This document shows, piece after piece, positions 1-47,746 of a stretch of 64,000 nt of DNA; position 1 is the stretch's first letter; each line of letters starts with the position of its first letter. A program made the translations under genes and the position numbers. A model generated the notes under the pieces. The model made no database searches, was not told the DNA's origin, and saw only the letters and a program-made list of their open reading frames with translations. Origin of the DNA: a virus; the IMG/VR virus record IMGVR_UViG_2885686650_000001, positions 730-64,729 of that record. One strand, 5' to 3'.

Positions 1-702
1 AGCAATAGCCTCACCACGACGCATGCCAGTTGTTAAAACAAGAAATAGATACGCTCTAGCCATTGACCAATCATGATTGATACTCGTATCCTCGTTTGTA
101 ATTGAGTTTAACGCCTTGATAAAATCAATTAACTCAGTACGTTCATAATAATTTTTAGTAACGACTGGGATAAATTCTTTCTTCTTACGTGGGGGCTCAA
201 CACTATCAAACGGATTGCTAGGCATAAATTTCATCCGTACTGCAAATCTAAACATCATTTCGGCATAAGCTGTTACTTTGCGATAGCTGGACATTTTCTT
301 AGCTAAGCTACTCATCCATTGTTGGCACGTTAATATTTCAATTTCTTTGATATACATTTTGCCAAATTTGGGCAAGATATGATTTCTAAATATTCGCTTA
401 GTTTTTAAGGCGGTACTATCTTCCAAGTCACTAACATATATTGGCCACCAAAGATCATACACTTGTTGGACTGTGTAACCGCGTTTACGTTGGACTTGCT
501 TTTCAACTGACTCTTTCTTTTTGTGAGTACCATGTTTTAACTCGTACTTAGCATCATCAAACGCGGTTTTGGCAGCCGTCTTTGTTTTAAAGCCATTGAG
601 GGATGTGTCAATACGTTTACCTGTGTGTGGATCTAGACCAAGATAGCCCTTAACTTTCCAAAGAGATTTTCCATCTTGTGTTTTATAACTTTCTATTTTC
701 AT
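1..702 (-). CDS. int: Tyrosine integrase of prophage 1, 5' part (runs off the window)
   Basis: Manual translation from ATG at 702 (RBS AAGGAG): MKIESYKTQDGKSLWKVKGYLGLDPHTGKR...YLFLVLTTGMRRGEAIA; arm-binding N-terminus and box I TGMR motif. Not in ORF track because it is truncated. Confidence 0.93.
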   Translation of the reverse strand, partial: MKIESYKTQDGKSLWKVKGYLGLDPHTGKRIDTSLNGFKTKTAAKTAFDDAKYELKHGTHKKKESVEKQVQRKRGYTVQQVYDLWWPIYVSDLEDSTALKTKRIFRNHILPKFGKMYIKEIEILTCQQWMSSLAKKMSSYRKVTAYAEMMFRFAVRMKFMPSNPFDSVEPPRKKKEFIPVVTKNYYERTELIDFIKALNSITNEDTSINHDWSMARAYLFLVLTTGMRRGEAIA

Positions 703-724
703 TTTATATTTCTCCTTTATTCTT

Positions 725-755
725 GCTTGCACGCGCTGAATTTAGAGAAAATCAG
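725..755 (+). repeat. Copy 1 of motif CTTGCACGC(R)(Y)TGAA, in the int leader
   Basis: 27/31 match to 7701-7730; 15/16 match to reverse complement of 32779-32794. Confidence 0.85.
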
Positions 756-774
756 GCATCACCTCCTTAAATTG

Positions 775-872
775 TGTTAAAATTATGTATACAAATAGCG
801 TAGCGTATTGCTATGCTGATTTGTCAGTTGACGTATCCCAAACTTTGGTCGGTGAGGGGATACGTCTTTTTT
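775..872 (+). ncRNA. Candidate antisense sRNA unit in front of int1 (extended -10 plus terminator)
   Basis: TGTTAAAAT at 775-783; stem GACGTATCCC(830-839)/GGGATACGTC(857-866) then T6; homologous unit at 34199-34296. Confidence 0.5.
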
Positions 873-2112
873 ATTTGTAAAGATTTAGAATTGCTTTAGA
901 AAATTTATGTGAGAGATACGGTGGCACAGCGTTACCAATTTGTTTAAAAGCACTGGTACGTGAAGTTTCAAAGTAGAAATTATCAGGAAAAGTTTGAATT
1001 CTGGCCGCCTCACGGACAGTAATGGAACGATTCTGCTTTACATCAGGATGAATATAATAGTGACCGTCTTTGCAAATATGAGCGACTAGTGTATGTGATA
1101 CAGCATTACTGTCTAGTGCCTTATATCTGTCTAAGAATGAGTGCTTATTCTTATGAGTCTGGTACTTTTTATCCAATTCATTATAGTGTAAATTAATACC
1201 CTTATTTTTTGCGTCGGCAATTAACTTATAAATTTCCAAATCATTTGGTTGATTAGGACGAGCAATGTTTTGAGTTAGGGGAACTTCAGCAGTCTTTCGA
1301 ATATTAGCTTGGACAAATTTACTTGGCTTTCTATTACTATATGAATTGACCTCTTGTCCACTATGCAATTCTGGAAGATCCTGGAATAGTTCTCCAACTG
1401 TATTAGGTGTTTCATGCAGTGTGTTGAGCTCTTTAAAGAACTCAGAAGGTTCAATAGACCCGTCTGTCCCAAAAATAATTAAACGTTCACGCTTTTGCGG
1501 TACACCGTATTTTGAAGAATCAATGATTTGCTTTTCAAGATGATAACCAGCTTCATTGAATTCACTAATCATTTTTGGAAGTAATGGTTCATCAAACTGA
1601 TCTTTAAACGATAATAGGCCCTTAACGTTCTCGAAGATAAAGAATTTAGGGCGATATTTCTTCAAGAATTCAATGTAATAGCGATATAAATAGATACGTT
1701 CATCCGAATCTTTCTTACTTTTGTTACGAGCTCTACCAACAGTTGAATATGCCTGGCATGGTGGCCCACCAATAATACCATCAATGTTTTTGATATTATT
1801 TTTAGCAATTTCATCATCAATTGTTGAAAAAATACCTGCAATAGTATCAGAGTTTATTTCTTGGTTCAGTGTTTTATTTTGTTGATCTAAGGGGATGTTA
1901 CTGAATAGTTGATCATGATTAATTTTCTTGGTCAAATATTGGCAGTATAAGTCTAGTTTATTATTATTCTTTAGATAATAGTAAGCATCGCGTAGTTTGA
2001 GCGTTTCTGCTGCTGCAATATCCATCTCAACGTGATTGAGAATGTTAAATTCATTTGTTCTAAATCCCTCAGTAAGCCCGCCGGCTCCCGAAAACAGATC
2101 GATTATGTTCAT
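871..2112 (-). CDS. DNA (cytosine-5)-methyltransferase
   Basis: Motifs I DLFSGAGG, IV GGPPCQ, VI FENV, VIII QKRER, X QIGNAVPP. Confidence 0.96.
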   Translation of the reverse strand: MNIIDLFSGAGGLTEGFRTNEFNILNHVEMDIAAAETLKLRDAYYYLKNNNKLDLYCQYLTKKINHDQLFSNIPLDQQNKTLNQEINSDTIAGIFSTIDDEIAKNNIKNIDGIIGGPPCQAYSTVGRARNKSKKDSDERIYLYRYYIEFLKKYRPKFFIFENVKGLLSFKDQFDEPLLPKMISEFNEAGYHLEKQIIDSSKYGVPQKRERLIIFGTDGSIEPSEFFKELNTLHETPNTVGELFQDLPELHSGQEVNSYSNRKPSKFVQANIRKTAEVPLTQNIARPNQPNDLEIYKLIADAKNKGINLHYNELDKKYQTHKNKHSFLDRYKALDSNAVSHTLVAHICKDGHYYIHPDVKQNRSITVREAARIQTFPDNFYFETSRTSAFKQIGNAVPPYLSHKFSKAILNLYK

Positions 2113-2163
2113 TGTGATTCACCTCTTAGACCAGGATATCAGGTTAGAAGATAAAAGTAAACT

Positions 2164-4347
2164 TTATCTTTTAGGGGAAGAACTCTCGCCTTTCAGCACA
2201 TTAATGAAACCCTCCGATAACTCTAAAAAAAGAATGGTATTCTTTGCAAGGTCCTTAATACGACTCTCTGTTAATGATGCTGGATTATGTGCGCCAGAAT
2301 GTCCTATTTTTAATTGATCCCCGAAAGTTATGCCATCACTCATTGGGATAAAAGCACGGAAAAAGTTATCTTTCCTATCACTGTTGGTTAGGCCCAGTTC
2401 GTTTGAAATTTTATTTTGTAGTTCTTTATCTCCCCTAACTTGACTGATTAGGCTATCAATAGCTTGAAAGCCACTTCCCAGACTTTTGTTTTGAAACTTG
2501 TTTGCTTCACTATTCTCCGGTCGAAGTCTTTCTTCAATTTCAACATCTGTAATTGACCTCATGGCCGCGCTAATTACATAATTAAAACTTGTGTCGTTTG
2601 AAACCCATAGGGCGTTTAGTTGCATCATGATGGTCCGAAAGAAGTCATTAGTTTCATTCGATTGAAGTTTAAAGTACTTACCGTTCTTCAAAGGGAAAAG
2701 CTCTGATTTTGAAGTTTTACCGTTTTTTTCAAAACGAAGTATAAAGGTATCAGACCAATTTCCTTTGGGGTATTTAACAACAATACATGTTGATTGAGGA
2801 ACATCACGTTCAGATAATTGACCGTTTAACACCTCATTTCCTTCCGATTCATAAAAAGTAAAGTCGCTCGAGTCCAGTCTTTCACCTGAACTTGAATGTG
2901 ACCTTTCTAAGTCAATATAGTCGAGTAGGTTAACTGATTTAAAACAAGGGATTGGTTTCGCAATTTTTGAACGCCTCAGTTTTATCTGGAAAGGCAATGT
3001 GTGACCACTTTCTGTTGGTTTAATTGAAGAAGTGAAGGATGGCCCATTGGTTTCTTTACTTGTCTTTTGAGCAATTTCTTTTGTGGATGTACCGACGTCA
3101 GGCTGTGTGGACATAACGGTCTTAGGTTTCAAAGCAATTTTTTCAAGTTTCGCTTTCACTTGTGATCGCTCTAAATTAACTTGGACTATAAATTCGTTAA
3201 TAAGATTTTTAAATTCCTCAAAGGATTTTTTAGTCGTTTGTAAGCCCTCACGATTAGTTTTTTCTGTTAAATATTGACTTGAACTATTTGCAAGGACGAT
3301 TTGTCCGGCAGATCGGGTATTTGATATTTTTTTTGAGTTATTTCGTGCTGCGTTCTCTAGTGCTAGCCAATCCTCGAGTCCGTAACCAAATAGTTTAAAG
3401 TTATTTCGGTAAATATTTATTCCTGCATCGTACGATAAAAAATCCTTGGTGATTTTACTAGGTGTAACAGAGCTGTTTTCGTATTGAAGTTGAAGATTGG
3501 ACGGCTCATAAAAGTTAAATAATTTAAAGGTGATATCACCAATTTTGCGTAGCTCAGCTTGTTGCTTTTTAATATAATTTTTTATTTTGGAGAGAGTTTC
3601 ATTGTAACCAATAATATCTGTCATTGTTTCTTTTTCGTCTAGTATTTTTGCGTATGCTAAATGTTTCAGGGTAAAAGACTGCTCATCCCAAGTTAGGTTA
3701 AATGTTGACTCAAGTGTTGCGTACCTCGTTGCTTCGCTAAAGCTCATAAGGTTAGTCGAATCTTTTTCGGAGTCAGGTGAAAGAATATTAATTTCAAAGT
3801 TTGTATCATCCAATAAAAGATTCGTTAGATTTTTTCTTAGCTCATCTATGTGGATAACCTCTGGTAGTATGTCTTTGATTGTCAAAATAGTACCGTTTTT
3901 TTTATTGCTACTAAACGTTAAGACATGAATATTGGCATTTTCAACACTGGTAGCGGTTTCTAATTCAGATTTTAGTAGTTTAAAGTGAGTTTCTATCCCA
4001 GTGGAAATGGTATGTACTTCGATGCTATTTCCTAGAGCAAATAAAGTGAAACGCCCGATTCCTTTACCACCGAGTAAACTAGGATTGTTAGTTTTAAAAT
4101 TAGTTCCGGCCCTAAACCAAGTTTCACTAATGTCTTCTGGTTTAATTCCTTCACCATCATCTGAAATGGTAATCTGTTCAGGAAATTGCGATAAATCAAT
4201 TGTGATTTCAGAGGCTTTAGCATCCTTAGCGTTTTTAATTTGTTCAGCAAAAACGATTGAAAGGTTCTCAGTTAGATTACTTCCTAAGAGTTCTGTCAGA
4301 ACGTTAGGGGCCACTGAAAAGTTTCTTGTTGATATCTCTGGTGCCAT
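2164..4347 (-). CDS. GHKL (MORC/HATPase_c-like) ATPase with S5 fold, linker and an uncharacterised helical C-terminal domain
   Basis: Bergerat-fold motifs EQIKNAKDA, SDDGEGI, GGKGIGRF, GTILTI; C-terminus SAAMRSITD...GHSGAHNP is loosely HEPN-like. Confidence 0.82.
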   Translation of the reverse strand: MAPEISTRNFSVAPNVLTELLGSNLTENLSIVFAEQIKNAKDAKASEITIDLSQFPEQITISDDGEGIKPEDISETWFRAGTNFKTNNPSLLGGKGIGRFTLFALGNSIEVHTISTGIETHFKLLKSELETATSVENANIHVLTFSSNKKNGTILTIKDILPEVIHIDELRKNLTNLLLDDTNFEINILSPDSEKDSTNLMSFSEATRYATLESTFNLTWDEQSFTLKHLAYAKILDEKETMTDIIGYNETLSKIKNYIKKQQAELRKIGDITFKLFNFYEPSNLQLQYENSSVTPSKITKDFLSYDAGINIYRNNFKLFGYGLEDWLALENAARNNSKKISNTRSAGQIVLANSSSQYLTEKTNREGLQTTKKSFEEFKNLINEFIVQVNLERSQVKAKLEKIALKPKTVMSTQPDVGTSTKEIAQKTSKETNGPSFTSSIKPTESGHTLPFQIKLRRSKIAKPIPCFKSVNLLDYIDLERSHSSSGERLDSSDFTFYESEGNEVLNGQLSERDVPQSTCIVVKYPKGNWSDTFILRFEKNGKTSKSELFPLKNGKYFKLQSNETNDFFRTIMMQLNALWVSNDTSFNYVISAAMRSITDVEIEERLRPENSEANKFQNKSLGSGFQAIDSLISQVRGDKELQNKISNELGLTNSDRKDNFFRAFIPMSDGITFGDQLKIGHSGAHNPASLTESRIKDLAKNTILFLELSEGFINVLKGESSSPKR

Positions 4348-5268: not shown

Positions 5269-5370
5269 GTTGCAAAAATGCAACAAGAAAAGTAGCAATA
5301 TTGCGATTTTTATATTGACAAGTAATTATGAATGTTGTAAATTGTATTTGTTGAGTCGCAATAATGCTAC
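5269..5370. promoter_or_regulatory. Genetic switch: three palindromic operators and rightward promoter
   Basis: GTTGCA-N4-TGCAAC 5269-5284, GTAGCA-N4-TGCGAT 5292-5307, GTCGCA-N4-TGCTAC 5355-5370; TTGACA(5315)-17-TAAATT(5338). Confidence 0.85.
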
Positions 5371-5390
5371 AAAATCAAGGAGATGATGAA

Positions 5391-5636
5391 TTGGTTGACG
5401 TTGATAAATTGAAGAAAATAATTAACGAGCGATCATCACAGGAGATAGTTGCAAAAAAAATCGGTGTTGACCGAAGCACTTTTTATAGAAAGTTAAAAAA
5501 GGGTGGCAATTTCAAGGTGAGGGAAGTTCAGCAATTAGTCAGCGTAATTCCTTTGACTGATGATGAAGCAATTTCCATTTTTTTTAAACCTAAAGTCGCA
5601 AAAACGCTACTTAATAAAGGTGGTGAAAAGGGATGA
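5391..5636 (+). CDS. cro: Cro-like HTH protein
   Basis: Divergent from cI; SQEIVAKKIGVDRSTFYRKL HTH; TTG start after AAGGAG. Confidence 0.85.
   Translation: MVDVDKLKKIINERSSQEIVAKKIGVDRSTFYRKLKKGGNFKVREVQQLVSVIPLTDDEAISIFFKPKVAKTLLNKGGEKG
5595..5610. promoter_or_regulatory. Fourth operator-like site within the cro 3' end
   Basis: GTCGCA-AAAA-CGCTAC fits the operator consensus. Confidence 0.6.
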
Positions 5637-5833
5637 ATGAATTGCTTGCAACTATTAATAAAGCAATTGACTGCTACTTGATTGATTTACAAAGTAATAA
5701 AAAAACCTTTGCAGACGTAAGCAGAGAATTACATCAACAAAGGTTTGATCATAGCAAAAGTGATTTAGAGATTGCAGTTTTAAACGAGCTACAAATCAGA
5801 AATCAAGCTAACGCTATGAAGAAAATCATTTAG
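5633..5833 (+). CDS. Hypothetical early protein
   Basis: ORF with RBS AAAGGTGGTGA, overlaps the cro stop. Confidence 0.65.
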   Translation: MNELLATINKAIDCYLIDLQSNKKTFADVSRELHQQRFDHSKSDLEIAVLNELQIRNQANAMKKII

Positions 5834-6146
5834 TTTCTATTCGAACAACGTTATTGCTTGAATAGATTGTTTTCGGATCATCATGAGTAAAGAAAAAGAA
5901 GTAATTTGCTAAGATTTCCGTAAACGCGGGGATAAGTCCTTCTTCCGCATGACGCCAAAGTTCAAACGGTCCGTTATAGCCGGTTGTTTTGGGAAAATTA
6001 TAAAGGTATGCAGTTGCTTCTTGCTCAGTCATATCAACTGGTACCTTGTCATTTTTTCTGGGCCTAATACCAAACAACAATTCATTTTCATGTAACTCGA
6101 TTTTTGATCCATCACTAAAGAATACTAATGTTTGCAATTTATTCAC
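5826..6146 (-). CDS. Hypothetical leftward cargo protein
   Basis: Own GGAGGT RBS (likely TTG start at 6137) and extended -10 TGAGATAAT upstream. Confidence 0.75.
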   Translation of the reverse strand: MNKLQTLVFFSDGSKIELHENELLFGIRPRKNDKVPVDMTEQEATAYLYNFPKTTGYNGPFELWRHAEEGLIPAFTEILANYFFFFTHDDPKTIYSSNNVVRIETK

Positions 6147-6216: not shown

Positions 6217-6326
6217 ATAAAGAACGAATAATACATTCAATTATTATTTCAATTTTTTGCGGAGTAGTAGGAGGAATAATTGGAGCCGCCGTCATACTTG
6301 TACCTTATTATTTTAGCTTCAAGTAG
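6213..6326 (+). CDS. 37-aa membrane peptide
   Basis: MNKERIIHSIIISIFCGVVGGIIGAAVILVPYYFSFK; strong RBS; below the ORF-track length cutoff. Confidence 0.6.
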   Translation: MNKERIIHSIIISIFCGVVGGIIGAAVILVPYYFSFK

Positions 6327-6661
6327 GCGGCTAACCAGCCAAGAGCAAATCCAACTATGGTTCCTATAATTCCAGAAATAACGGATGAGCTTAACGGAAA
6401 CCAAAAATTATTTTTCTTGTCGATTTGCTTGGATTTTTGCTCTAGTTCTAATTCATTCTCACCATCGGCAGTTAAAAATATTCTTTTGATAGTTGTTCCA
6501 TATTGACCGTTGGATGTTTCAATTTCTGTTTCTAGGTCAATTAATTTTAGGTCATAAAGCTTTCGTAATTGTTCATTGTTATTGAAATAATCATTGTTGA
6601 TTGGGATGTTATGTTCTTTAACATCATTTAGTAGTTTTAGTTGAGTATCGGATAAGTTCAT
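6308..6661 (-). CDS. Hypothetical leftward cargo protein with C-terminal TM anchor
   Basis: RBS AAAGGGG; C-terminal ISGIIGTIVGFALGWLAAYL. Confidence 0.75.
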   Translation of the reverse strand: MNLSDTQLKLLNDVKEHNIPINNDYFNNNEQLRKLYDLKLIDLETEIETSNGQYGTTIKRIFLTADGENELELEQKSKQIDKKNNFWFPLSSSVISGIIGTIVGFALGWLAAYLKLK

Positions 6662-6738: not shown

Positions 6739-6992
6739 GCGATAAAAGGATGAGTATGTTTCTTAAAGATTATGTTATGGAACCAGTTGCAAATAAATCA
6801 ATTGATGATGAGTTTAATTTTCCAGTCTCAGAACTAGGAATGGAAATTGTTGAATTGATTAATAAAAAAAAGCCCACATATGTAGCAGCATATGCAAGCT
6901 TGCAATGGGCCTATGATTGTTTGAAATATCAGTCTAATTTTGTACAAGTCCCAGATACTCGTATTCTTCCTTCACAAAATGAGGAAGAATAA
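6735..6992 (+). CDS. Hypothetical early protein
   Basis: ORF with strong RBS. Confidence 0.65.
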   Translation: MSDKRMSMFLKDYVMEPVANKSIDDEFNFPVSELGMEIVELINKKKPTYVAAYASLQWAYDCLKYQSNFVQVPDTRILPSQNEEE

Positions 6993-7401
6993 AAGTTTTT
7001 CTCCCATTAAATAGAGAAAAAGCCAGATGAGTTGGCTTGTATGATTCATATTCCGAAATTGGTAATGGGTCGTTTCCATAGGCAACATTATTGTTTATGA
7101 AATTAACTCGAATAAATTCACTAAGAGCTTCTGCAGGGCTAAGATTAGTCCCTAACTCAAATTTATCATGTAATTCTTCGATTGTACTATAAAAAAGAAT
7201 TGGTAAAGTTCCAAAAGTTTTAATTGAACCTACGTGATCTTTATTCGAGGCACTAAAGAAACTCAGCGTATTATCCGAATTTTCTCTAAAAAAATTAACG
7301 GTGAATTCGTTCTTACCATCAGAATACCATGGTGTTGCATCAATTTCGTTATGCTTAATTACAAATTCAATTAATTGCATTTGGGTAATGGATAGTTTCA
7401 T
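6934..7401 (-). CDS. Hypothetical leftward cargo protein
   Basis: ATG at 7401 after GGAGGTGA; promoter in repeat copy 3. Confidence 0.75.
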   Translation of the reverse strand: MKLSITQMQLIEFVIKHNEIDATPWYSDGKNEFTVNFFRENSDNTLSFFSASNKDHVGSIKTFGTLPILFYSTIEELHDKFELGTNLSPAEALSEFIRVNFINNNVAYGNDPLPISEYESYKPTHLAFSLFNGRKTFILPHFVKEEYEYLGLVQN

Positions 7402-7405
7402 TTTT

Positions 7406-7462
7406 ATCACCTCCTTCAAAGCGATTATCTCACTTGGTGGTAAAAAACAAAATAGTTGAAAG
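7406..7462. repeat. Cassette-boundary repeat, copy 3
   Basis: TCACCTCCTT...ATTATCTCACTTGG...AAAACAAAATAG as in copy 1. Confidence 0.8.
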
Positions 7463-7695
7463 AAATGAGAAACATGACTGAAGAAGCATTAAAAGAAATA
7501 CGGTTAATTTTCCGTGATGAATTACTTCATGCGAATGCTCGCTGGCTTGATACCAAAGCAGCTATCGCATATGTGAATGGTGTTCGAGCCTTACAGCACT
7601 TACGTGAATCAGGATTATCTCATTCAAGAGTTGGCGGCAAGCTTCTATATGACCGTCAAGAAATAGATCGATTACTCGAAAAAATGAAAAAATAA
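7456..7695 (+). CDS. xis: Excisionase-like MerR/HTH_17 DNA-binding protein
   Basis: WLDTKAAIAYV...RVGGKLLYDRQEIDRLLE winged-HTH pattern in the early region. Confidence 0.7.
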   Translation: MKEMRNMTEEALKEIRLIFRDELLHANARWLDTKAAIAYVNGVRALQHLRESGLSHSRVGGKLLYDRQEIDRLLEKMKK

Positions 7696-7700
7696 AAAAT

Positions 7701-7730
7701 GCTTGCACGCGTTGAAATTAGAGTAATCAG
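7701..7730 (+). repeat. Copy 2 of the CTTGCACGC motif, just after the xis stop
   Basis: GCTTGCACGCGTTGAAATTAGAGTAATCAG vs 725-755. Confidence 0.85.
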
Positions 7731-7746
7731 AATACGAGGAATGAAA

Positions 7747-7857
7747 ATGTTAGTTCTTGATACAGTATCCGTATTATTTACAGCAATAATTGCAATCCCA
7801 GTCGGTTACATAATTGCAAAGATTGATTGGCACCATTTAAAAAAATATTTTGGTTAG
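7747..7857 (+). CDS. Small membrane peptide
   Basis: MLVLDTVSVLFTAIIAIPVGYIIAKIDWHHLKKYFG; RBS GAGGA. Confidence 0.55.
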   Translation: MLVLDTVSVLFTAIIAIPVGYIIAKIDWHHLKKYFG

Positions 7858-7864
7858 GTGAATT

Positions 7865-8044
7865 ATGAAGCACTTGGATTTAGCAACATTAGAAACAGTC
7901 ATGGCATCAATTGATAACTTAGCAAAAACTCAGCGAATTAAAACGGACAGTGGTGCCTTAAAAGGCGTCTTAGCTGCTTGGGATGAAGTTGAAGGATTAG
8001 CTAATGAAGAAAAAGAATTGAGACGTCAAGAATACGCTAGATAA
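7865..8044 (+). CDS. Hypothetical 59-aa protein
   Basis: Open frame with RBS AGGTG, fills the gap between neighbours. Confidence 0.55.
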   Translation: MKHLDLATLETVMASIDNLAKTQRIKTDSGALKGVLAAWDEVEGLANEEKELRRQEYAR

Positions 8045-30841: not shown

Positions 30842-31076
30842 TTGGGCATCAAGAATTAAGAATAAAACTTTTTGGCTGGCGTTAGTGCCGGCTATTTTAT
30901 TGCTCGTTCAAACTGTTTTGACTCCATTTGGGTATAAGTGGGATTTTGGTGTATTAAATGCAGAATTAGCCGCAATTATTAACGCTGCTTTTGCAGTATT
31001 AACTATTTTAGGTGTTGTCAATGATCCAACTAGTTTGGGCTTTACTGATAAGGAGGGAAAGAATGAAGTTAAATAA
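30819..31076 (+). CDS. Holin (phiLC3 family)
   Basis: IDWASRIKNKTFWLALVPA...GVVNDPTSLG. Confidence 0.92.
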   Translation: MKLMKKIDWASRIKNKTFWLALVPAILLLVQTVLTPFGYKWDFGVLNAELAAIINAAFAVLTILGVVNDPTSLGFTDKEGKNEVK

Positions 31077-32355
31077 AAAAGTTGTTACTATGATGACCGC
31101 TGCTGCAGTGGTTATTTTTATGTCTGCACCAATTAATCAGGTAGCAGCTGCCAAGGGTGATCATGGTGTTGATTGGTCAAAGTATCAGGGCTCACATGGT
31201 GTATATGGCTATCAGCAAGATAAATTCGTAATCAGCCAAGTTGGCGGCTATTACAATGGTCAGTTTATTGACCAACTGACCTACCAAACCCAAGTCAGTT
31301 CAGCAATTGCGGCCGGGAAGCGTGCTCACACCTATATTTATTCTCAATTCTCAGGTCGTGAACAGGCTGATGCAATGCTAAATTATTATCTACCAAAAAT
31401 CCAGACGCCAAAGGGCTCAATTGTTGCTTTAGATGTTGAGAGTGGCCAACCAGACACTGATTCAGTTATTTATGCCCTGAATCGTATTAAGGCGGCTGGA
31501 TATACTGCAGTATTATATGGCTACAAAAATTTCTTAGTTAGTCACATTAATTTGAGCACAGTAGCAGCACAATACCCGCTTTGGTTAGCCGAATATCCAG
31601 ACTATAATGTTACACCTGACCCAAATTATAATTATTTTCCTAGTTATGATAATGTGGGTATTTTTCAATTCACTAGCACCTATATTGGTGGCGGTTTGGA
31701 CGGCAATATTGATTTAACCGGCGTTACTGATAATGGCTATGGCGGTAATATTAAAACCAATTCAGGAAAAGTCGTTGTTAAACCAAATTCAACGACTTCT
31801 GCAATTAATGTGGGGCAATCTGCAAATAATACTGCTAAAGCAAACATCAAGTCGGGTGATACTGTAAAAGTTAACTTAACTGCCACTAAATGGGCTAACG
31901 GTGTTGGGATGCCAGCTTGGGTTCGCGGCAAGACGTATCAAGTTCAGCAAGTTAGTGGTAACAAAGTTTTACTTGCCGGCATCATGAGCTGGGCCAATAA
32001 ATCTGACGTTGAGTTGTTGAGCGTTGGCAGCACAAGTACACCAGCAACTAACTCTGCAAATAGTTATACCGTGCAATATGGTGACAGTTGGTGGGCAATT
32101 GCTAATAAGTTTGGAATTAATATGTATTCGTTAGCGGCAGTCAACGGCAAAACCATTAACACAGTGATTTATCCTGGGCAGCGTTTAACTATCGGCTCAG
32201 CCACTGTAAGCTCTGCACGAACATACACTGTCAAATACGGAGATAGTTGGTGGCTGATTGGCTCTAAGCTTGGTATTAGCATGTATACACTAGCTGCCAA
32301 AAATGGTAAAACCATTAACTCAATGATCCATCCTAATCAAATATTGATGTATTAA
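31063..32355 (+). CDS. Endolysin: signal peptide, GH25 muramidase, SH3-like domain, two LysM
   Basis: GVDWSKYQG, ALDVE, FQFTS; two YTVxYGDSWW repeats; N-terminal basic-hydrophobic-AAA signal. Confidence 0.95.
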   Translation: MKLNKKVVTMMTAAAVVIFMSAPINQVAAAKGDHGVDWSKYQGSHGVYGYQQDKFVISQVGGYYNGQFIDQLTYQTQVSSAIAAGKRAHTYIYSQFSGREQADAMLNYYLPKIQTPKGSIVALDVESGQPDTDSVIYALNRIKAAGYTAVLYGYKNFLVSHINLSTVAAQYPLWLAEYPDYNVTPDPNYNYFPSYDNVGIFQFTSTYIGGGLDGNIDLTGVTDNGYGGNIKTNSGKVVVKPNSTTSAINVGQSANNTAKANIKSGDTVKVNLTATKWANGVGMPAWVRGKTYQVQQVSGNKVLLAGIMSWANKSDVELLSVGSTSTPATNSANSYTVQYGDSWWAIANKFGINMYSLAAVNGKTINTVIYPGQRLTIGSATVSSARTYTVKYGDSWWLIGSKLGISMYTLAAKNGKTINSMIHPNQILMY

Positions 32356-32655: not shown

Positions 32656-32767
32656 TAGACTTTGCAAATTTCGGCGATATTCTAAAAGTTTGCGTATATG
32701 TATGTGAGCGCCTGATTAACGCTCAGATTTTTGGTGGCCATCTTTTAGGGCAAGGGTGGCTGTTTTT
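32656..32767 (+). ncRNA. Candidate ~80-nt sRNA B
   Basis: TAGACT-16-TATTCT; hairpin TGAGCG/CGCTCA; 10-bp terminator stem plus T-run. Confidence 0.4.
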
Positions 32768-32778
32768 ATATGTAAAAT

Positions 32779-32794
32779 ATTCAGTGCGTGCAAG
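32779..32794 (-). repeat. Copy 3 of the CTTGCACGC motif, in the att arm
   Basis: Reverse complement CTTGCACGCACTGAAT. Confidence 0.75.
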
Positions 32795-32813: not shown

Positions 32814-32833
32814 TATGTGGCAAATATGTGGCA
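32814..32833. repeat. Integrase arm-type direct repeat (prophage 1 side)
   Basis: TATGTGGCA twice with 11-bp period. Confidence 0.7.
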
Positions 32834-32888: not shown

Positions 32889-32906
32889 CGACTCCCCTCA
32901 CCTCCA
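32889..32906 (+). other. att core: 3' end of a tmRNA/tRNA-like gene
   Basis: CGACTCCCCTCACCTCCA = part of T-loop, T-stem and acceptor strand ending CUCCA (compatible with G3:U70 of tmRNA); the 5' part is absent. Confidence 0.7.
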
Positions 32907-33004
32907 TAATAATAGTTTTATCCGTTTCGATTAAGACCATGAATGCTGATTTAATAACATTTATGGCCTTTTTGTTTTTATTAATTTTGATTGGTTTTTG
33001 AACC

Positions 33005-33028: not shown

Positions 33029-34180
33029 TCAAAGTGCAGATAGCGCGTCAACAGTGGCTTTTACCTCGGTGTCTTCCAAACTCTTTAATAGATGAGTGTA
33101 CACATTCTGAGTCATGGTAACATTACTATGACCTAACCGCCGAGAAATATAATTAATGTTGATGTGTTTGTAAATCAAGAACGAAACATGAGTGTGTCTT
33201 AAGCCGTGGAAAGTGATTGGGTCAGATATACCTAGCTCTTTTTCTAGTGCCTTGAGACTGCGATTTATTGACGAATTAGAGGGTACCTCGTGTCTGGCAT
33301 TACGAAAAACCAAATTATACTTATCACGGTATCCCTGATACAGATAAACCTCAGACTGTTCTTTTTTTAACCGATGTAGCGCAATTAAAAGATTGTCGGA
33401 AACATCAATTATTCGAACGCTTGATTTATTTTTTGTTTTGGTGAATCCAGACCTAAATTGGTAATCCCAAGTCTTGTTAATATTGATTTGCTTATTCTTA
33501 AAATCGACATCTTTCCAAGTTAATCCAAGAATTTCGGAATATCTTGCGCCCGTCAGTGCACCGGTTGCAATCAGATAATAGGGGAAATGCTCAGAATAAT
33601 TGGCAAACTCAGTTGTAGTGTTGATTAGCTTCTTAAAATCATTCAATTCTAAATACTTAATTTTACTTTCTGTCTGATCATCAGGTATGCTAACGCCATT
33701 GGTAAAATTGGAGTAAACAATCTGGTCATCAATTGCGTTATTGACCATGCTGCGAACGTAGCCATTAAGCTTGCTAATTGTATCTTTTGAGCGCCGTTTT
33801 GGAATACGGCGGTCCTTACCAGTAGAAAAGTCATTGATAAATTCTTGCCAATCGCTTTTGGTGATGGTCTTTAATTCCCGAAGTGGACCAAAGTATTTCA
33901 TTAATTGGCCACGAATAATGGTATAGCGTTTTTCTGTTATTTCTGCATGCTTGCCAGCCTTAAATAATTCTATCCAGCGGTCCCAATAATCCATAAAAGT
34001 AATTGTGCTATTATCTAATGTCGCGCCGTGGGCATATTTAGTTTCAATTTCTAGGCTGGCATTTTCGGCTGACCGTTTTGTTTTAAAACCCGACTTACTT
34101 ACATATTTACGCTTGCCGTCTTTATCGATATAACTAACTCGATATTGCCAAGACTTTCCACGTTTCATAATATTTGCCAT
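33029..34180 (-). CDS. int: Tyrosine integrase of prophage 2
   Basis: TGARYSE, KTK, HGLRHTH, RLGH...TQNVYTH catalytic set. Confidence 0.97.
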   Translation of the reverse strand: MANIMKRGKSWQYRVSYIDKDGKRKYVSKSGFKTKRSAENASLEIETKYAHGATLDNSTITFMDYWDRWIELFKAGKHAEITEKRYTIIRGQLMKYFGPLRELKTITKSDWQEFINDFSTGKDRRIPKRRSKDTISKLNGYVRSMVNNAIDDQIVYSNFTNGVSIPDDQTESKIKYLELNDFKKLINTTTEFANYSEHFPYYLIATGALTGARYSEILGLTWKDVDFKNKQININKTWDYQFRSGFTKTKNKSSVRIIDVSDNLLIALHRLKKEQSEVYLYQGYRDKYNLVFRNARHEVPSNSSINRSLKALEKELGISDPITFHGLRHTHVSFLIYKHININYISRRLGHSNVTMTQNVYTHLLKSLEDTEVKATVDALSAL

Positions 34181-34198
34181 AGCGTTTCCTCCAAATTA

Positions 34199-34296
34199 TG
34201 TTAAAATTGAGTACAGAAAGAGCCTATACCCTATGTATAGTTTTTTTCGTGGTTGACGTATCCCAACTTTGCACGGTGGGGGATGCGTCTTTTTTT
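34199..34296 (+). ncRNA. Candidate antisense sRNA unit in front of int2
   Basis: TGTTAAAAT at 34199; GACGTATCCC/GGGATGCGTC stem plus T-run; homologous to 775-872. Confidence 0.5.
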
Positions 34297-34419
34297 ATTA
34301 TCTAATTTTATACTGACCAGGACTTAGAGTTTTACTAATAGCAAATTCCTGACCATTTTCAAATCTGAAGGAAACAGTTATAGGTGCAACATCACTGTTA
34401 CCAGCGGTGTGGGGCTTTT

Positions 34420-46539: not shown

Positions 46540-47746
46540 TATTGTTCCTGGGCTATTAGCAGATATTCAGAAGCAATTTTACCTCGAGACAACTCAGTCA
46601 AAAAAGTTGAAGGCTGCATTATTAAAACTAGAAAAAAATAAGGCTACTTATCAGGATGTCAATGAATTTGCTATTGAGGTTGGAGAAACTTTATCAAAAG
46701 TTCTAAGCGACAATATTTATAGTGAGATCCTACCTGATCAAAAAATGTATTATAATATCGCTCAAAGAATTTTAGAGCCAACCTTGAAGAATAATTATGA
46801 TCTGATTTCTGGCTATGCTGCAGACGTACAAAAAAGTCTGAATCAAGCAGCAAATCTCAATTTAAAAGCCCAGGTGCCAGAATATAATCAAGATCGTACG
46901 AATGGCATTATCAACAGAGTTTCATCAGAAGAAAATTTTGACGATATTAAATGGATTCTTGATGATCCTATTGTCAATTTCTCTCAGAGTGTGGTTGATG
47001 ATTCGATTAGGGAGAATAGTGAATTTCAGGCGAAAGCAGGGTTAAGACCAAAATTAATTCGTAGGGTATCAGGACATGGTTGCGCATGGTGTCGTAATTT
47101 ATCGGGATCATATGATTATGGAGATGCCCCTGAAGATATTTATCGACGCCATGATAATTGCAGGTGCACAGTTGATTTTCAACCTAGTAGTGGCCGCCGA
47201 CAAAATGTTTGGTCGAAGAAGTGGTATAAATCACAAAATGATGCTAAAATCGAAGTAAGAAAGAATATTGGCGTCTTAGTTGAAAGCGGCGCTAAAAATT
47301 ATGCGCGGGACGAGAGTACAGATTTTCTTTTTTCAAAAGAACATGTTCGAAGGCAAAAGTATGCCTTTACTCAATACGACGAAATTAAAAATAGTGATCA
47401 GAATTTAGAAAAGAGAAAAATCTATTCAAACATTAGGAAGTATAAGTCCATGAGTGATTTCTCTAAGCGTGATGTGGATATTGCGTTTGATCATGTTTTT
47501 AATGACATTCATGATTTAGAAAATGGTAAGGGGCTTTTTACTCCGGACCCTGATATGGCATATTCTTGGACCCGCTTAATAAATGATGAGTCAATACGAG
47601 AGCACGATTTAATTCTGTTAAGACATGAGCGCTGTGAGAGAGATTACATGAAAAAAGGCATGGACTATCATAAGGCGCATGTTGAAACGGATAGTAAGTT
47701 TGATTATGCTGGAGCATTGAAAAAATATAAAGAAGGGAGAAAATGA
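46523..47746 (+). CDS. Minor head (MuF-like) protein with C-terminal toxin-like extension
   Basis: CAWC...HDNCRC at ~aa 190-215; ~150-aa extension with PDPDMAYSWTRL...HERCE...YHKAH. Confidence 0.8.
   Translation: MRMDNDIVPGLLADIQKQFYLETTQSKKLKAALLKLEKNKATYQDVNEFAIEVGETLSKVLSDNIYSEILPDQKMYYNIAQRILEPTLKNNYDLISGYAADVQKSLNQAANLNLKAQVPEYNQDRTNGIINRVSSEENFDDIKWILDDPIVNFSQSVVDDSIRENSEFQAKAGLRPKLIRRVSGHGCAWCRNLSGSYDYGDAPEDIYRRHDNCRCTVDFQPSSGRRQNVWSKKWYKSQNDAKIEVRKNIGVLVESGAKNYARDESTDFLFSKEHVRRQKYAFTQYDEIKNSDQNLEKRKIYSNIRKYKSMSDFSKRDVDIAFDHVFNDIHDLENGKGLFTPDPDMAYSWTRLINDESIREHDLILLRHERCERDYMKKGMDYHKAHVETDSKFDYAGALKKYKEGRK

Follow-up and report, generated by a model that had tools for sequence, protein, structure and literature searches.

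Organization of the locus

The window, by which we mean the whole stretch of 64,000 nucleotides analysed here, belongs to a host genome of 2.53 Mb with a GC content of 42%. The closest named relatives of the integrase (Int) are from Lacticaseibacillus, and homologues of the unit upstream of int are present in phages of Lactobacillus and Latilactobacillus, from which we infer that the host is a member of the Lactobacillaceae. The att core, CCCCTCACCTCCAT, corresponds to the 3' end of ssrA (tmRNA), and its three occurrences indicate that two prophages are inserted in tandem at this site, with prophage 1 extending from -680 to ~32907. The two prophages differ both in their integrases (int1 versus int2) and in their arm repeats (ATGTGGCA versus ATGTGTACA), the ATGTGGCA arm-type repeats being found on both arms around the core of prophage 1. 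Comparison of the int region of prophage 1 with deposited phages (megablast, blastn) returned no match to this phage. The main features are as follows.

-680, 32894-32907 and 65309: att core CCCCTCACCTCCAT
1..702, minus strand: int1, tyrosine integrase of prophage 1, continuing left of the window to ~-512 (404 aa in total; open reading frame and Pfam PF14659/PF00589)
702-700, minus strand: ATG start codon of int1, with an AAGGAG Shine-Dalgarno (SD) sequence 5' of it (CTCCTT on the plus strand, 712-717)
871-2112, minus strand: Dcm (C5-cytosine) methylase
2164-4347, minus strand: HATPase_c_3 (GHKL ATPase) protein of 727 aa
4452-5249: CI-type repressor with HTH_3 and S24 domains
5364-5636: Cro-like gene, divergent from the CI-type repressor
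5826-6146 (phrog_6996), 6308-6661 and 6934-7419, minus strand: three leftward genes that interrupt the rightward early genes, with the Cro-like gene on one side and the HTH gene on the other
7465..7695, plus strand: HTH gene, excisionase-like, 76 aa, 5' of motif copy 2
7747..7857, plus strand: small hydrophobic ORF 3' of copy 2 (read from sequence), with synteny kept in other lineages
31012-32355: lysin, the last of the late genes, followed by three plus-strand terminators
33029-34180: int2, integrase of prophage 2

The methylase and the GHKL ATPase, encoded between the repressor and int, may form a methylation-linked defence or moron module; related phages carry other cargo in the corresponding place. 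The label 'xis-like', applied to the HTH gene in the earlier note, is weak in the window itself, where the HTH_17 match (E 0.004) falls below the cutoff, and draws on positional homologues elsewhere, which are assigned to phrog_668 and sometimes to HTH_17 or phrog_66. Such positional equivalents were found in 21 loci and encode proteins of 76-102 aa. Eight of the ten equivalents tested match phrog_668 ('HTH DNA binding protein'), while matches to HTH_17 were obtained for three (above the curated cut-off for two of these) and to phrog_66 (excisionase and regulator) for two.

Three copies of a 16-base motif

Three places in prophage 1 that are associated with integration and excision share a 16-base motif.

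726-741, plus strand: copy 1, CTTGCACGCGCTGAAT, present as its reverse complement in the int leader RNA (region 725-755, minus strand)
7702-7717, plus strand (region 7701-7730): copy 2, CTTGCACGCGTTGAAA, in the early-transcript sense, with complementarity to the int leader
32779-32794, minus strand: copy 3, CTTGCACGCACTGAAT, inverted, in the int-distal att arm

The sequences and coordinates given for the three copies in the earlier note are exact, and its measurements were reproduced: regions 725-755 and 7701-7730 are identical at 27 of 31 positions with one gap, copy 1 and the int ATG are 23 nt apart, 6 nt separate the TAA of the HTH gene (7693-7695) from copy 2, and copy 3 is 20 nt away from the first ATGTGGCA arm repeat (32815). 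Many further copies scattered in the host genome had been named as an outcome that would speak against the proposed link; the core TTGCACGCNNTGAA occurs at these three places only in the entire 2.53-Mb genome, and is absent from 60 related genomes.

Nevertheless, the three-copy match in this window alone is barely above background. With up to three mismatches, there are four matches in the window versus 0.47 expected, and none of 100 shuffles reaches four; the fourth, at 47565, has three mismatches and lies within an ORF. The single-locus statistic is weak, given that the longest match of the leader with at most one mismatch spans 17 nt and that random control windows of 45 nt from this 14-kb region reach as much as 15 nt. 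In addition, a 16-mer triple with at most two mismatches is not rare in 64 kb if picked post hoc. Match length alone was therefore dropped as evidence, and the significance of the motif derives from the recurrence of equivalent positions in other phages. A sigma-70 promoter reading of the motif, with TTGCAC serving as -35 and, at copy 3, TATAAA following after 17 nt, was likewise rejected: nothing resembling a -35 hexamer is present in the motifs of other lineages, and no promoter was predicted at either copy 1 or copy 2.

The leader hairpin of int1

Copy 1 is part of a predicted hairpin in the int leader, preceded in the int sense by a second SD-like element.

709..752, minus strand: int leader hairpin, with a stem between the SD (712-717) and the anti-SD UUUUCUC (~745-751) and with copy 1 at the apex (minimum free energy fold)
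742..768, minus strand: pseudo-SD AAGGAGGTGATGCC (755-768) and a 5-codon mini-ORF, MPDFL* (759-742), reaching into the anti-SD arm (read from sequence)

Many phages, this one included, contain an extra 55-70 nt between the int start and the small RNA unit described below. In the int sense, this leader insert consists of the pseudo-SD AAGGAGGTGATGCC, the anti-SD arm, a GC-rich apex of ~15 nt and the true SD. Pairing between the SD and the anti-SD is found in the minimum free energy fold of 17-18 of the 19 lineage representatives, with differing stem sequences. The retrieval of loci by Int similarity from genome and viral collections yielded relatives of at most 32% identity, which are unusable for leader comparison, and Int relatives at 60% identity sit on 2-5-kb contigs and were left out of it.

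The hairpin is followed by AUAUAAAAUG, with no U-run, and no minus-strand terminator-like site that could serve as an attenuator was found in 600-1000. Nor was an int-sense promoter identified between the methylase gene and int; the int leader may be present solely through read-through from the repressor operon. The pseudo-SD/mini-ORF block is kept in most related leaders and may either encode a leader peptide or offer the anti-SD another sequence to pair with. It comprises a perfect anti-16S-like SD, AAGGAGGTGAT, located 2 nt before the ATG of the 5-codon ORF that ends in the anti-SD arm; a AAGGAGGTG(A/T/G)TGCC block followed by a short ORF is found again in most related leaders.

A putative Lacto-int small RNA beside int

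Adjacent to the leader, and on the strand opposite int, lies a compact unit with the hallmarks of a small RNA gene, a second version of which is located in front of int2.

773..872, plus strand: small RNA unit opposite int, with a TRTGnTAAAAT promoter (773-783) and two hairpins plus a terminator (789-872)
34188-34300, plus strand: second Lacto-int-type unit, 5' of int2, 74% identical to 762-872

The promoter is of the Gram-positive extended -10 type (TGTGTTAAAAT), the unit ends with a T-run, and its minimum free energy structure consists of two hairpins (z -5.5). In the alignment of related units, covariation was counted in the terminator hairpin, because the other hairpin is too length-variable to align. 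The terminator stem displays six compensatory pairs along with many G·U pairs that are valid for the plus strand only. A DNA search with the segment 560-900 among 400 family genomes matched 44 of them, in addition to the region 5' of int2 in the window, and the conserved portion of this segment is 773-872. The int2 unit abuts the int2 ribosome-binding site (RBS) and is accompanied by neither a leader hairpin nor the address motif.

The 773-872 unit appears to be the Lacto-int motif, which was described as two hairpins located 5' of phage integrases in Lactobacillales (Weinberg 2010, Genome Biol 11:R31, PMC2864571, Additional file 1). In that description, Lacto-int is drawn in the int sense, with its function given as unknown and the comment that it is 'possibly an inverted repeat in DNA', and the first hairpin is backed by covariation in the published alignment (PMC2864571). 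The motif has no Rfam accession or model. The likeness lies in the position, with 773-872 adjoining the int1 leader, the second unit 5' of int2 and homologous units 5' of int in 44 of the 400 genomes, and, upon visual comparison with fragments of the published alignment, in the shared AAGUUUGG and the order UUUUAC...-RBS. By contrast, the published motif is confined to the two hairpins and includes no three-copy address, no SD-sequestering leader hairpin and no post-xis hairpin. Unlike in the published drawing, we favour transcription of the unit from the strand opposite int, considering its promoter, its T-run and the strand-specific G·U pairs.

The whole window yielded nothing when searched against Rfam at the gathering threshold. 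Against the RF00242 model (ctRNA_pT181), the small RNA units score 41.6 bits (E 1e-4) for 773-872 and 36.6 bits (E 1.2e-3) for the int2 unit, both below the gathering score of 56. Similar to the pT181 countertranscript, the unit is predicted to specify a small RNA that folds into two hairpins, has a promoter and a terminator of its own and runs antisense to the leader of the putatively regulated gene; CAAACUUUGGUC is common to both terminator loops. However, besides the subthreshold score, there is no attenuator in the int leader, the target is an integrase rather than a replication initiator, and the address motif has no pT181 counterpart.

Recurrence of the motif positions across phage lineages

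Comparison of related phages indicates that many Lactobacillaceae phages have a three-site 'address', of which the 16-base motif is the version found in this prophage. The apex of the int leader recurs after the HTH gene in 15 lineages, each with a different motif code, represented by 27 loci. The second copy is invariably found 3-8 kb upstream of int, in the identical DNA orientation and 1-12 nt past the stop codon of a gene for an HTH protein of 76-102 aa, with a small hydrophobic ORF coming next. The apex sequences themselves are wholly different between lineages, as exemplified by ACCTAGGCGGGTAG, GTGGGGCACACGTTCACAAG, TCCCGGGCAGGATTCA, AGCGTGGGAGCATAAA and CCCGTGCGAGGACGAT. Invariably, int and the HTH gene are encoded on opposite strands, which makes their transcripts complementary to each other at the motif. 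A family-wide pattern search added three new lineages and no more.

In the window, copy 2 is itself embedded in a predicted hairpin.

7670..7728, plus strand: copy-2 hairpin, formed by the arms GATTACTC (7670-7677, still within the coding sequence, at its 3' end) and GAGTAATC (7721-7728) and with the stop codon and copy 2 in the loop (minimum free energy fold)

Hairpins of this type, with lineage-specific stems and the 5' arm within the last codons of the HTH gene, are predicted in at least 11 of 18 lineages, and in lineage B the stem has undergone a compensatory change from GAAT/ATTC to GGAT/ATCC. Overall, the predicted folds display the complementary sequences in loops for copy 1 in 17-18 of 19 lineages and for copy 2 in at least 11 of 18.

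Phages without the leader hairpin provide a complementary view. In prophage 2 of the window and in phage Sha1, the int RBS abuts the small-RNA promoter, and the leader hairpin, copy 2 and copy 3 are all missing, from which we conclude that the three sites come as a set. A prophage of lineage B, L071 (G366:C1:969500-985000), carries copy 1 and an exact inverted copy 3 (G366:C1:1013390) 40.5 kb apart, with no convincing copy 2 behind an HTH gene in the 12 kb examined, and may be a natural partial variant. A candidate copy 2 at 972 kb in the G366 prophage was rejected, given that its alignment requires a gap, that the gene in front of it is unrelated and that its duplex energy does not stand out. 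In the circular lineage-B genome OP650937, the order is copy 3 (6504), attP, int (~6862-8024), copy 1 (8042) and copy 2 (13858). This 41.8-kb circular record (OP650937.1, L113) is deposited as 'Hujiaoplasma phage zrk29-2' with the tag UNVERIFIED_ORG; its int leader is 98% identical to those of lineage-B Lactobacillaceae prophages, which renders the stated Tenericutes host doubtful.

RNA pairing versus DNA sites at copies 1 and 2

The earlier note had put forward two explanations for the motif, namely, a DNA site for the Xis-like protein, or an RNA switch in which the transcript past xis pairs with the int leader. The comparison across lineages bears on both. In RNAduplex calculations, the post-xis window ranks first among the 310-1333 windows considered as leader partners in all 19 loci, with duplex energies of -34 to -54 kcal/mol compared to a mean of ~-17 (sd ~4.5; z ~-5 to -7). 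In prophage 1, none of 1293 windows forms a better duplex with the leader than copy 2 (7701-7730), at -46 kcal/mol versus a mean of -16.9. Furthermore, eleven of the twelve transitions that distinguish copies 1 and 2 keep a G·U pair between the leader (minus-strand) RNA and the early (plus-strand) RNA and one is of the opposite kind (binomial p ~0.003; 7:1 at interior positions). The similarity between the two copies beyond the loop runs into the anti-SD arm and never into the SD arm. When copy-2 RNA is added in silico, the probability of the SD being unpaired increases in 18 of 19 lineages, from a mean of ~0.33 for the leader alone to ~0.69, with ~0.46 for a shuffled control.

The principal alternative is that all three copies are duplex DNA sites for the small HTH (excisionase-like) protein encoded 5' of copy 2, a reading that we consider rather unlikely for the set as a whole. 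Binding would promote excision at the att arm, tune int at the leader and small-RNA promoter (~-65 to -35 relative to the small-RNA start), and mediate autoregulation or block read-through at copy 2. The 9-12-bp core common to all three copies would make a plausible single winged-helix footprint, but the similarity between copies 1 and 2 spans 18-27 nt and reaches specifically into the anti-SD arm. Likewise, the two copies are placed at the apices of hairpins with co-varying stems, which a duplex DNA site does not need, and the 11:1 bias towards G·U-compatible changes is unexpected for a DNA site, where the two directions of transition would be about equally frequent. Copy 2 is always joined to the HTH gene, which would ensure that protein and site are inherited together, and lineages B and F have the same arm repeat, GGTGCAC, yet a different motif and a different HTH protein, which likewise speaks for the DNA-site reading. 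However, a site directly past the stop codon of the regulator's own gene would be unusual, and a single non-palindromic copy per place contrasts with the tandem repeats usually bound by known directionality factors. Thus, for copies 1 and 2, the comparison favours the RNA switch over the protein site on account of lineage co-variation, hairpins, duplex energies and the G·U bias. Judging from these sequence patterns, copies 1 and 2 probably pair as RNA, and a kissing-loop interaction likely couples Int translation to xis transcription.

The consequence of pairing for Int is less certain. A negative version of the pairing, in which the duplex is an RNase III substrate or blocks the leader, such that Int is switched off once lytic transcription runs, and in which read-through of the late terminator produces a leader-like decoy from copy 3, appears quite improbable. 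It draws on the same evidence of pairing between copies 1 and 2 as does activation, long perfect RNA duplexes are typical targets of RNase III, and four of the six substitutions of copy 3, when read as plus-strand RNA, are G·U-compatible with copy-2 RNA. However, excision requires Int and the directionality factor together, so that repression of int by the xis transcript would be hard to rationalize. Moreover, the SD is predicted to be sequestered without a partner and opened by it, and copy 3 is located downstream of a plus-strand terminator. Even so, that pairing activates rather than represses is offered tentatively, based as it is on modelled structures.

Recombination relics or hot spots at module boundaries or duplications, or else chance similarity, have a very low probability: although copies 1 and 3 are inverted repeats around int-attP in circular DNA, copies 1 and 2 are direct repeats around the lysogeny module, and the length of the match in this one locus is close to background, the cores are kept at equal functional positions in 15 lineages with fully diverged flanks, where relics would decay, the lineage-specific motifs are unable to serve inter-lineage exchange, and chance could not have put the best match of ~25 loci no more than 12 nt away from the same stop codon.

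Copy 3 and the att arm

The third copy is located in a different setting, at the far end of the prophage.

32733..32764, plus strand: last terminator-like hairpin in the late region, with 14 nt between its end and copy 3
32815..32833: two ATGTGGCA arm-type direct repeats, with three more beside the int stop codon, left of the window

An inverted third copy, consisting of a 9-16-nt core of each lineage's own motif, was identified in all nine lineages for which the far prophage end is available, in each case between the late terminator and the Int arm repeats. The order is constant: the late plus-strand terminator comes first, then a brief AT-rich segment (often TTATGTAT), then the motif as its reverse complement, and finally the tandem Int arm-type repeats. 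The distance from copy 3 to the arm repeats is 0-20 nt, or 75-90 nt in two cases. Every lineage examined has one copy at each of the three places, with no tandem copies.

Because copy 3 is inverted, a leftward (int-sense) transcript would carry the motif in the sense orientation. No leftward terminator is present between copy 3 and the core in 11 of 13 prophages; in the remaining two, both of one att type (OP650937, G366), a strong leftward terminator separates copy 3 from int. In at least six lineages, the late terminator beside copy 3 has a T-run also on the minus strand (read from sequence), so that a leftward transcript would end just past the motif. No leftward promoter that could feed copy 3 passed a two-hexamer scan, and TATAAT-like boxes were seen by eye in several lineages. 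Neither strand is predicted to form a hairpin displaying copy 3. As a partner of the leader, copy 3 taken as minus-strand RNA ranks between 2nd and 232nd of 1,600-3,000 windows, and the energy ranks thus lend no support to a strong RNA partnership; nor do its substitutions preserve G·U pairs with the leader, four being G>A versus two that are compatible.

Copy 3 therefore fits the RNA model poorly. It may be either a partner of int in the 3'UTR of the int transcript from circular phage DNA, or a protein site, and it could be that the HTH-protein reading is true for copy 3 alone. In all nine lineages, copy 3 lies beside tandem Int arm-type repeats, where a directionality factor would bind, and in one att type it is insulated by terminators on both sides; by contrast, the spacing to the arm repeats is variable, which speaks against such a site. 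For this copy, the DNA site suggested in the earlier note remains a serious candidate, given its location next to the Int arm repeats.

Proposed mechanism

Under the preferred reading, namely, RNA pairing between copies 1 and 2 with activation of int, the closed leader hairpin, with its SD/anti-SD stem and the reverse complement of the motif at the apex, would hold Int low in the lysogen together with the Lacto-int-type antisense RNA. Upon induction or during early infection, the early transcript would carry the post-xis loop, which would kiss the loop of the int leader. Pairing would then spread from the loops into the anti-SD arm, and the freed int SD would allow translation of Int alongside the excisionase-like gene.

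A role for copy 3 in cis, at the 3' end of the int transcript, is doubtful, and this part of the scheme is more tentative. Located just beyond attP from int, copy 3 would allow an int transcript made from circular DNA to carry the address on its own 3' end, in cis, which could permit Int synthesis without the early transcript during establishment. Integration would sever copy 3 from the int transcript, making it a positive counterpart of lambda sib. Taken to its full extent, the address would be a three-way sensor of the physical state of the phage, such that circular DNA unlocks the int RBS by itself, integration silences it and the xis transcript restores it in trans; we regard this as unlikely. 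Equally unlikely is the corollary that Int would reappear only together with the directionality factor. In a still more exotic version, the address RNA, or a complex of RNA and protein, would recognize the att-arm copy as DNA.

Relation to known systems

Activation of translation by an anti-antisense RNA is exemplified by DsrA-rpoS, RNAIII-hla and GlmZ-glmS. As in these cases, an inhibitory hairpin hides the SD, and an RNA acting in trans pairs with the anti-SD side and opens the hairpin, all of which is predicted here. However, the putative activator would be the 3' end of an mRNA behind an xis-like gene rather than a dedicated small RNA, both partners are encoded by one phage, and the pairing sequence is re-coded in each lineage.

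In phage lambda, sib is an RNase III hairpin that destroys the int mRNA, that is, a negative control. The resemblance lies in the location of the site across attP from int, such that integration separates it from the int transcript; by contrast, copy 3 matches the leader loop over a short single-stranded stretch, and whatever effect it might have as RNA would be positive. Sites of directionality factors include X1/X2 of lambda Xis, the Cox boxes of P2 and those of TorI in KplE1, and some of these factors also regulate int transcription. Copy 3 alone resembles them as a short site in the att arm by Int arm-type sites, whereas there is one copy per place here versus tandem repeats there, and the two other copies are found at apices of predicted RNA hairpins with G·U-compatible substitutions.

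The kinds of control invoked here, including kissing-loop, anti-antisense and sib-like position effects, are already known. For the putative three-site address, no published description was found: a full-text literature search returned only Weinberg 2010 for Lacto-int and nothing on the lineage-B motif sequence, and broader searches covering integrase, excisionase and antisense RNA returned no description of such a link.

Outside the lambda paradigm, it is, to our knowledge, largely unexplained how temperate phages of Gram-positive bacteria come to make Int alone when integrating and Int plus Xis when excising. If true, the proposed mechanism would be an RNA-level solution to this problem in phages of lactic acid bacteria, based on an mRNA-to-mRNA address, and would provide the orphan Lacto-int motif with a function and a context. 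Re-coding of the address in each lineage would insulate a prophage from co-resident ones, as in the tandem pair at ssrA of this host. The scheme would also offer orthogonal RNA pairs of 14-20 nt for engineering of Lactobacillaceae, and would have a bearing on prophage stability in starter and probiotic strains.

Further occurrences of the small RNA elements

Within the early region of prophage 1, the gap 7404-7464 contains ACTTGGTGGT, which resembles the conserved loop of the small RNA, ACUUUGGUCGGU, in the same sense. In the related elements L055 (~2700-2800), L079 (~650-750) and L074, a tRNA gene is found directly past the small RNA terminator, on the int-upstream side. The conserved terminator hairpin of the small RNA alone also adjoins tRNA genes in the absence of an integrase.
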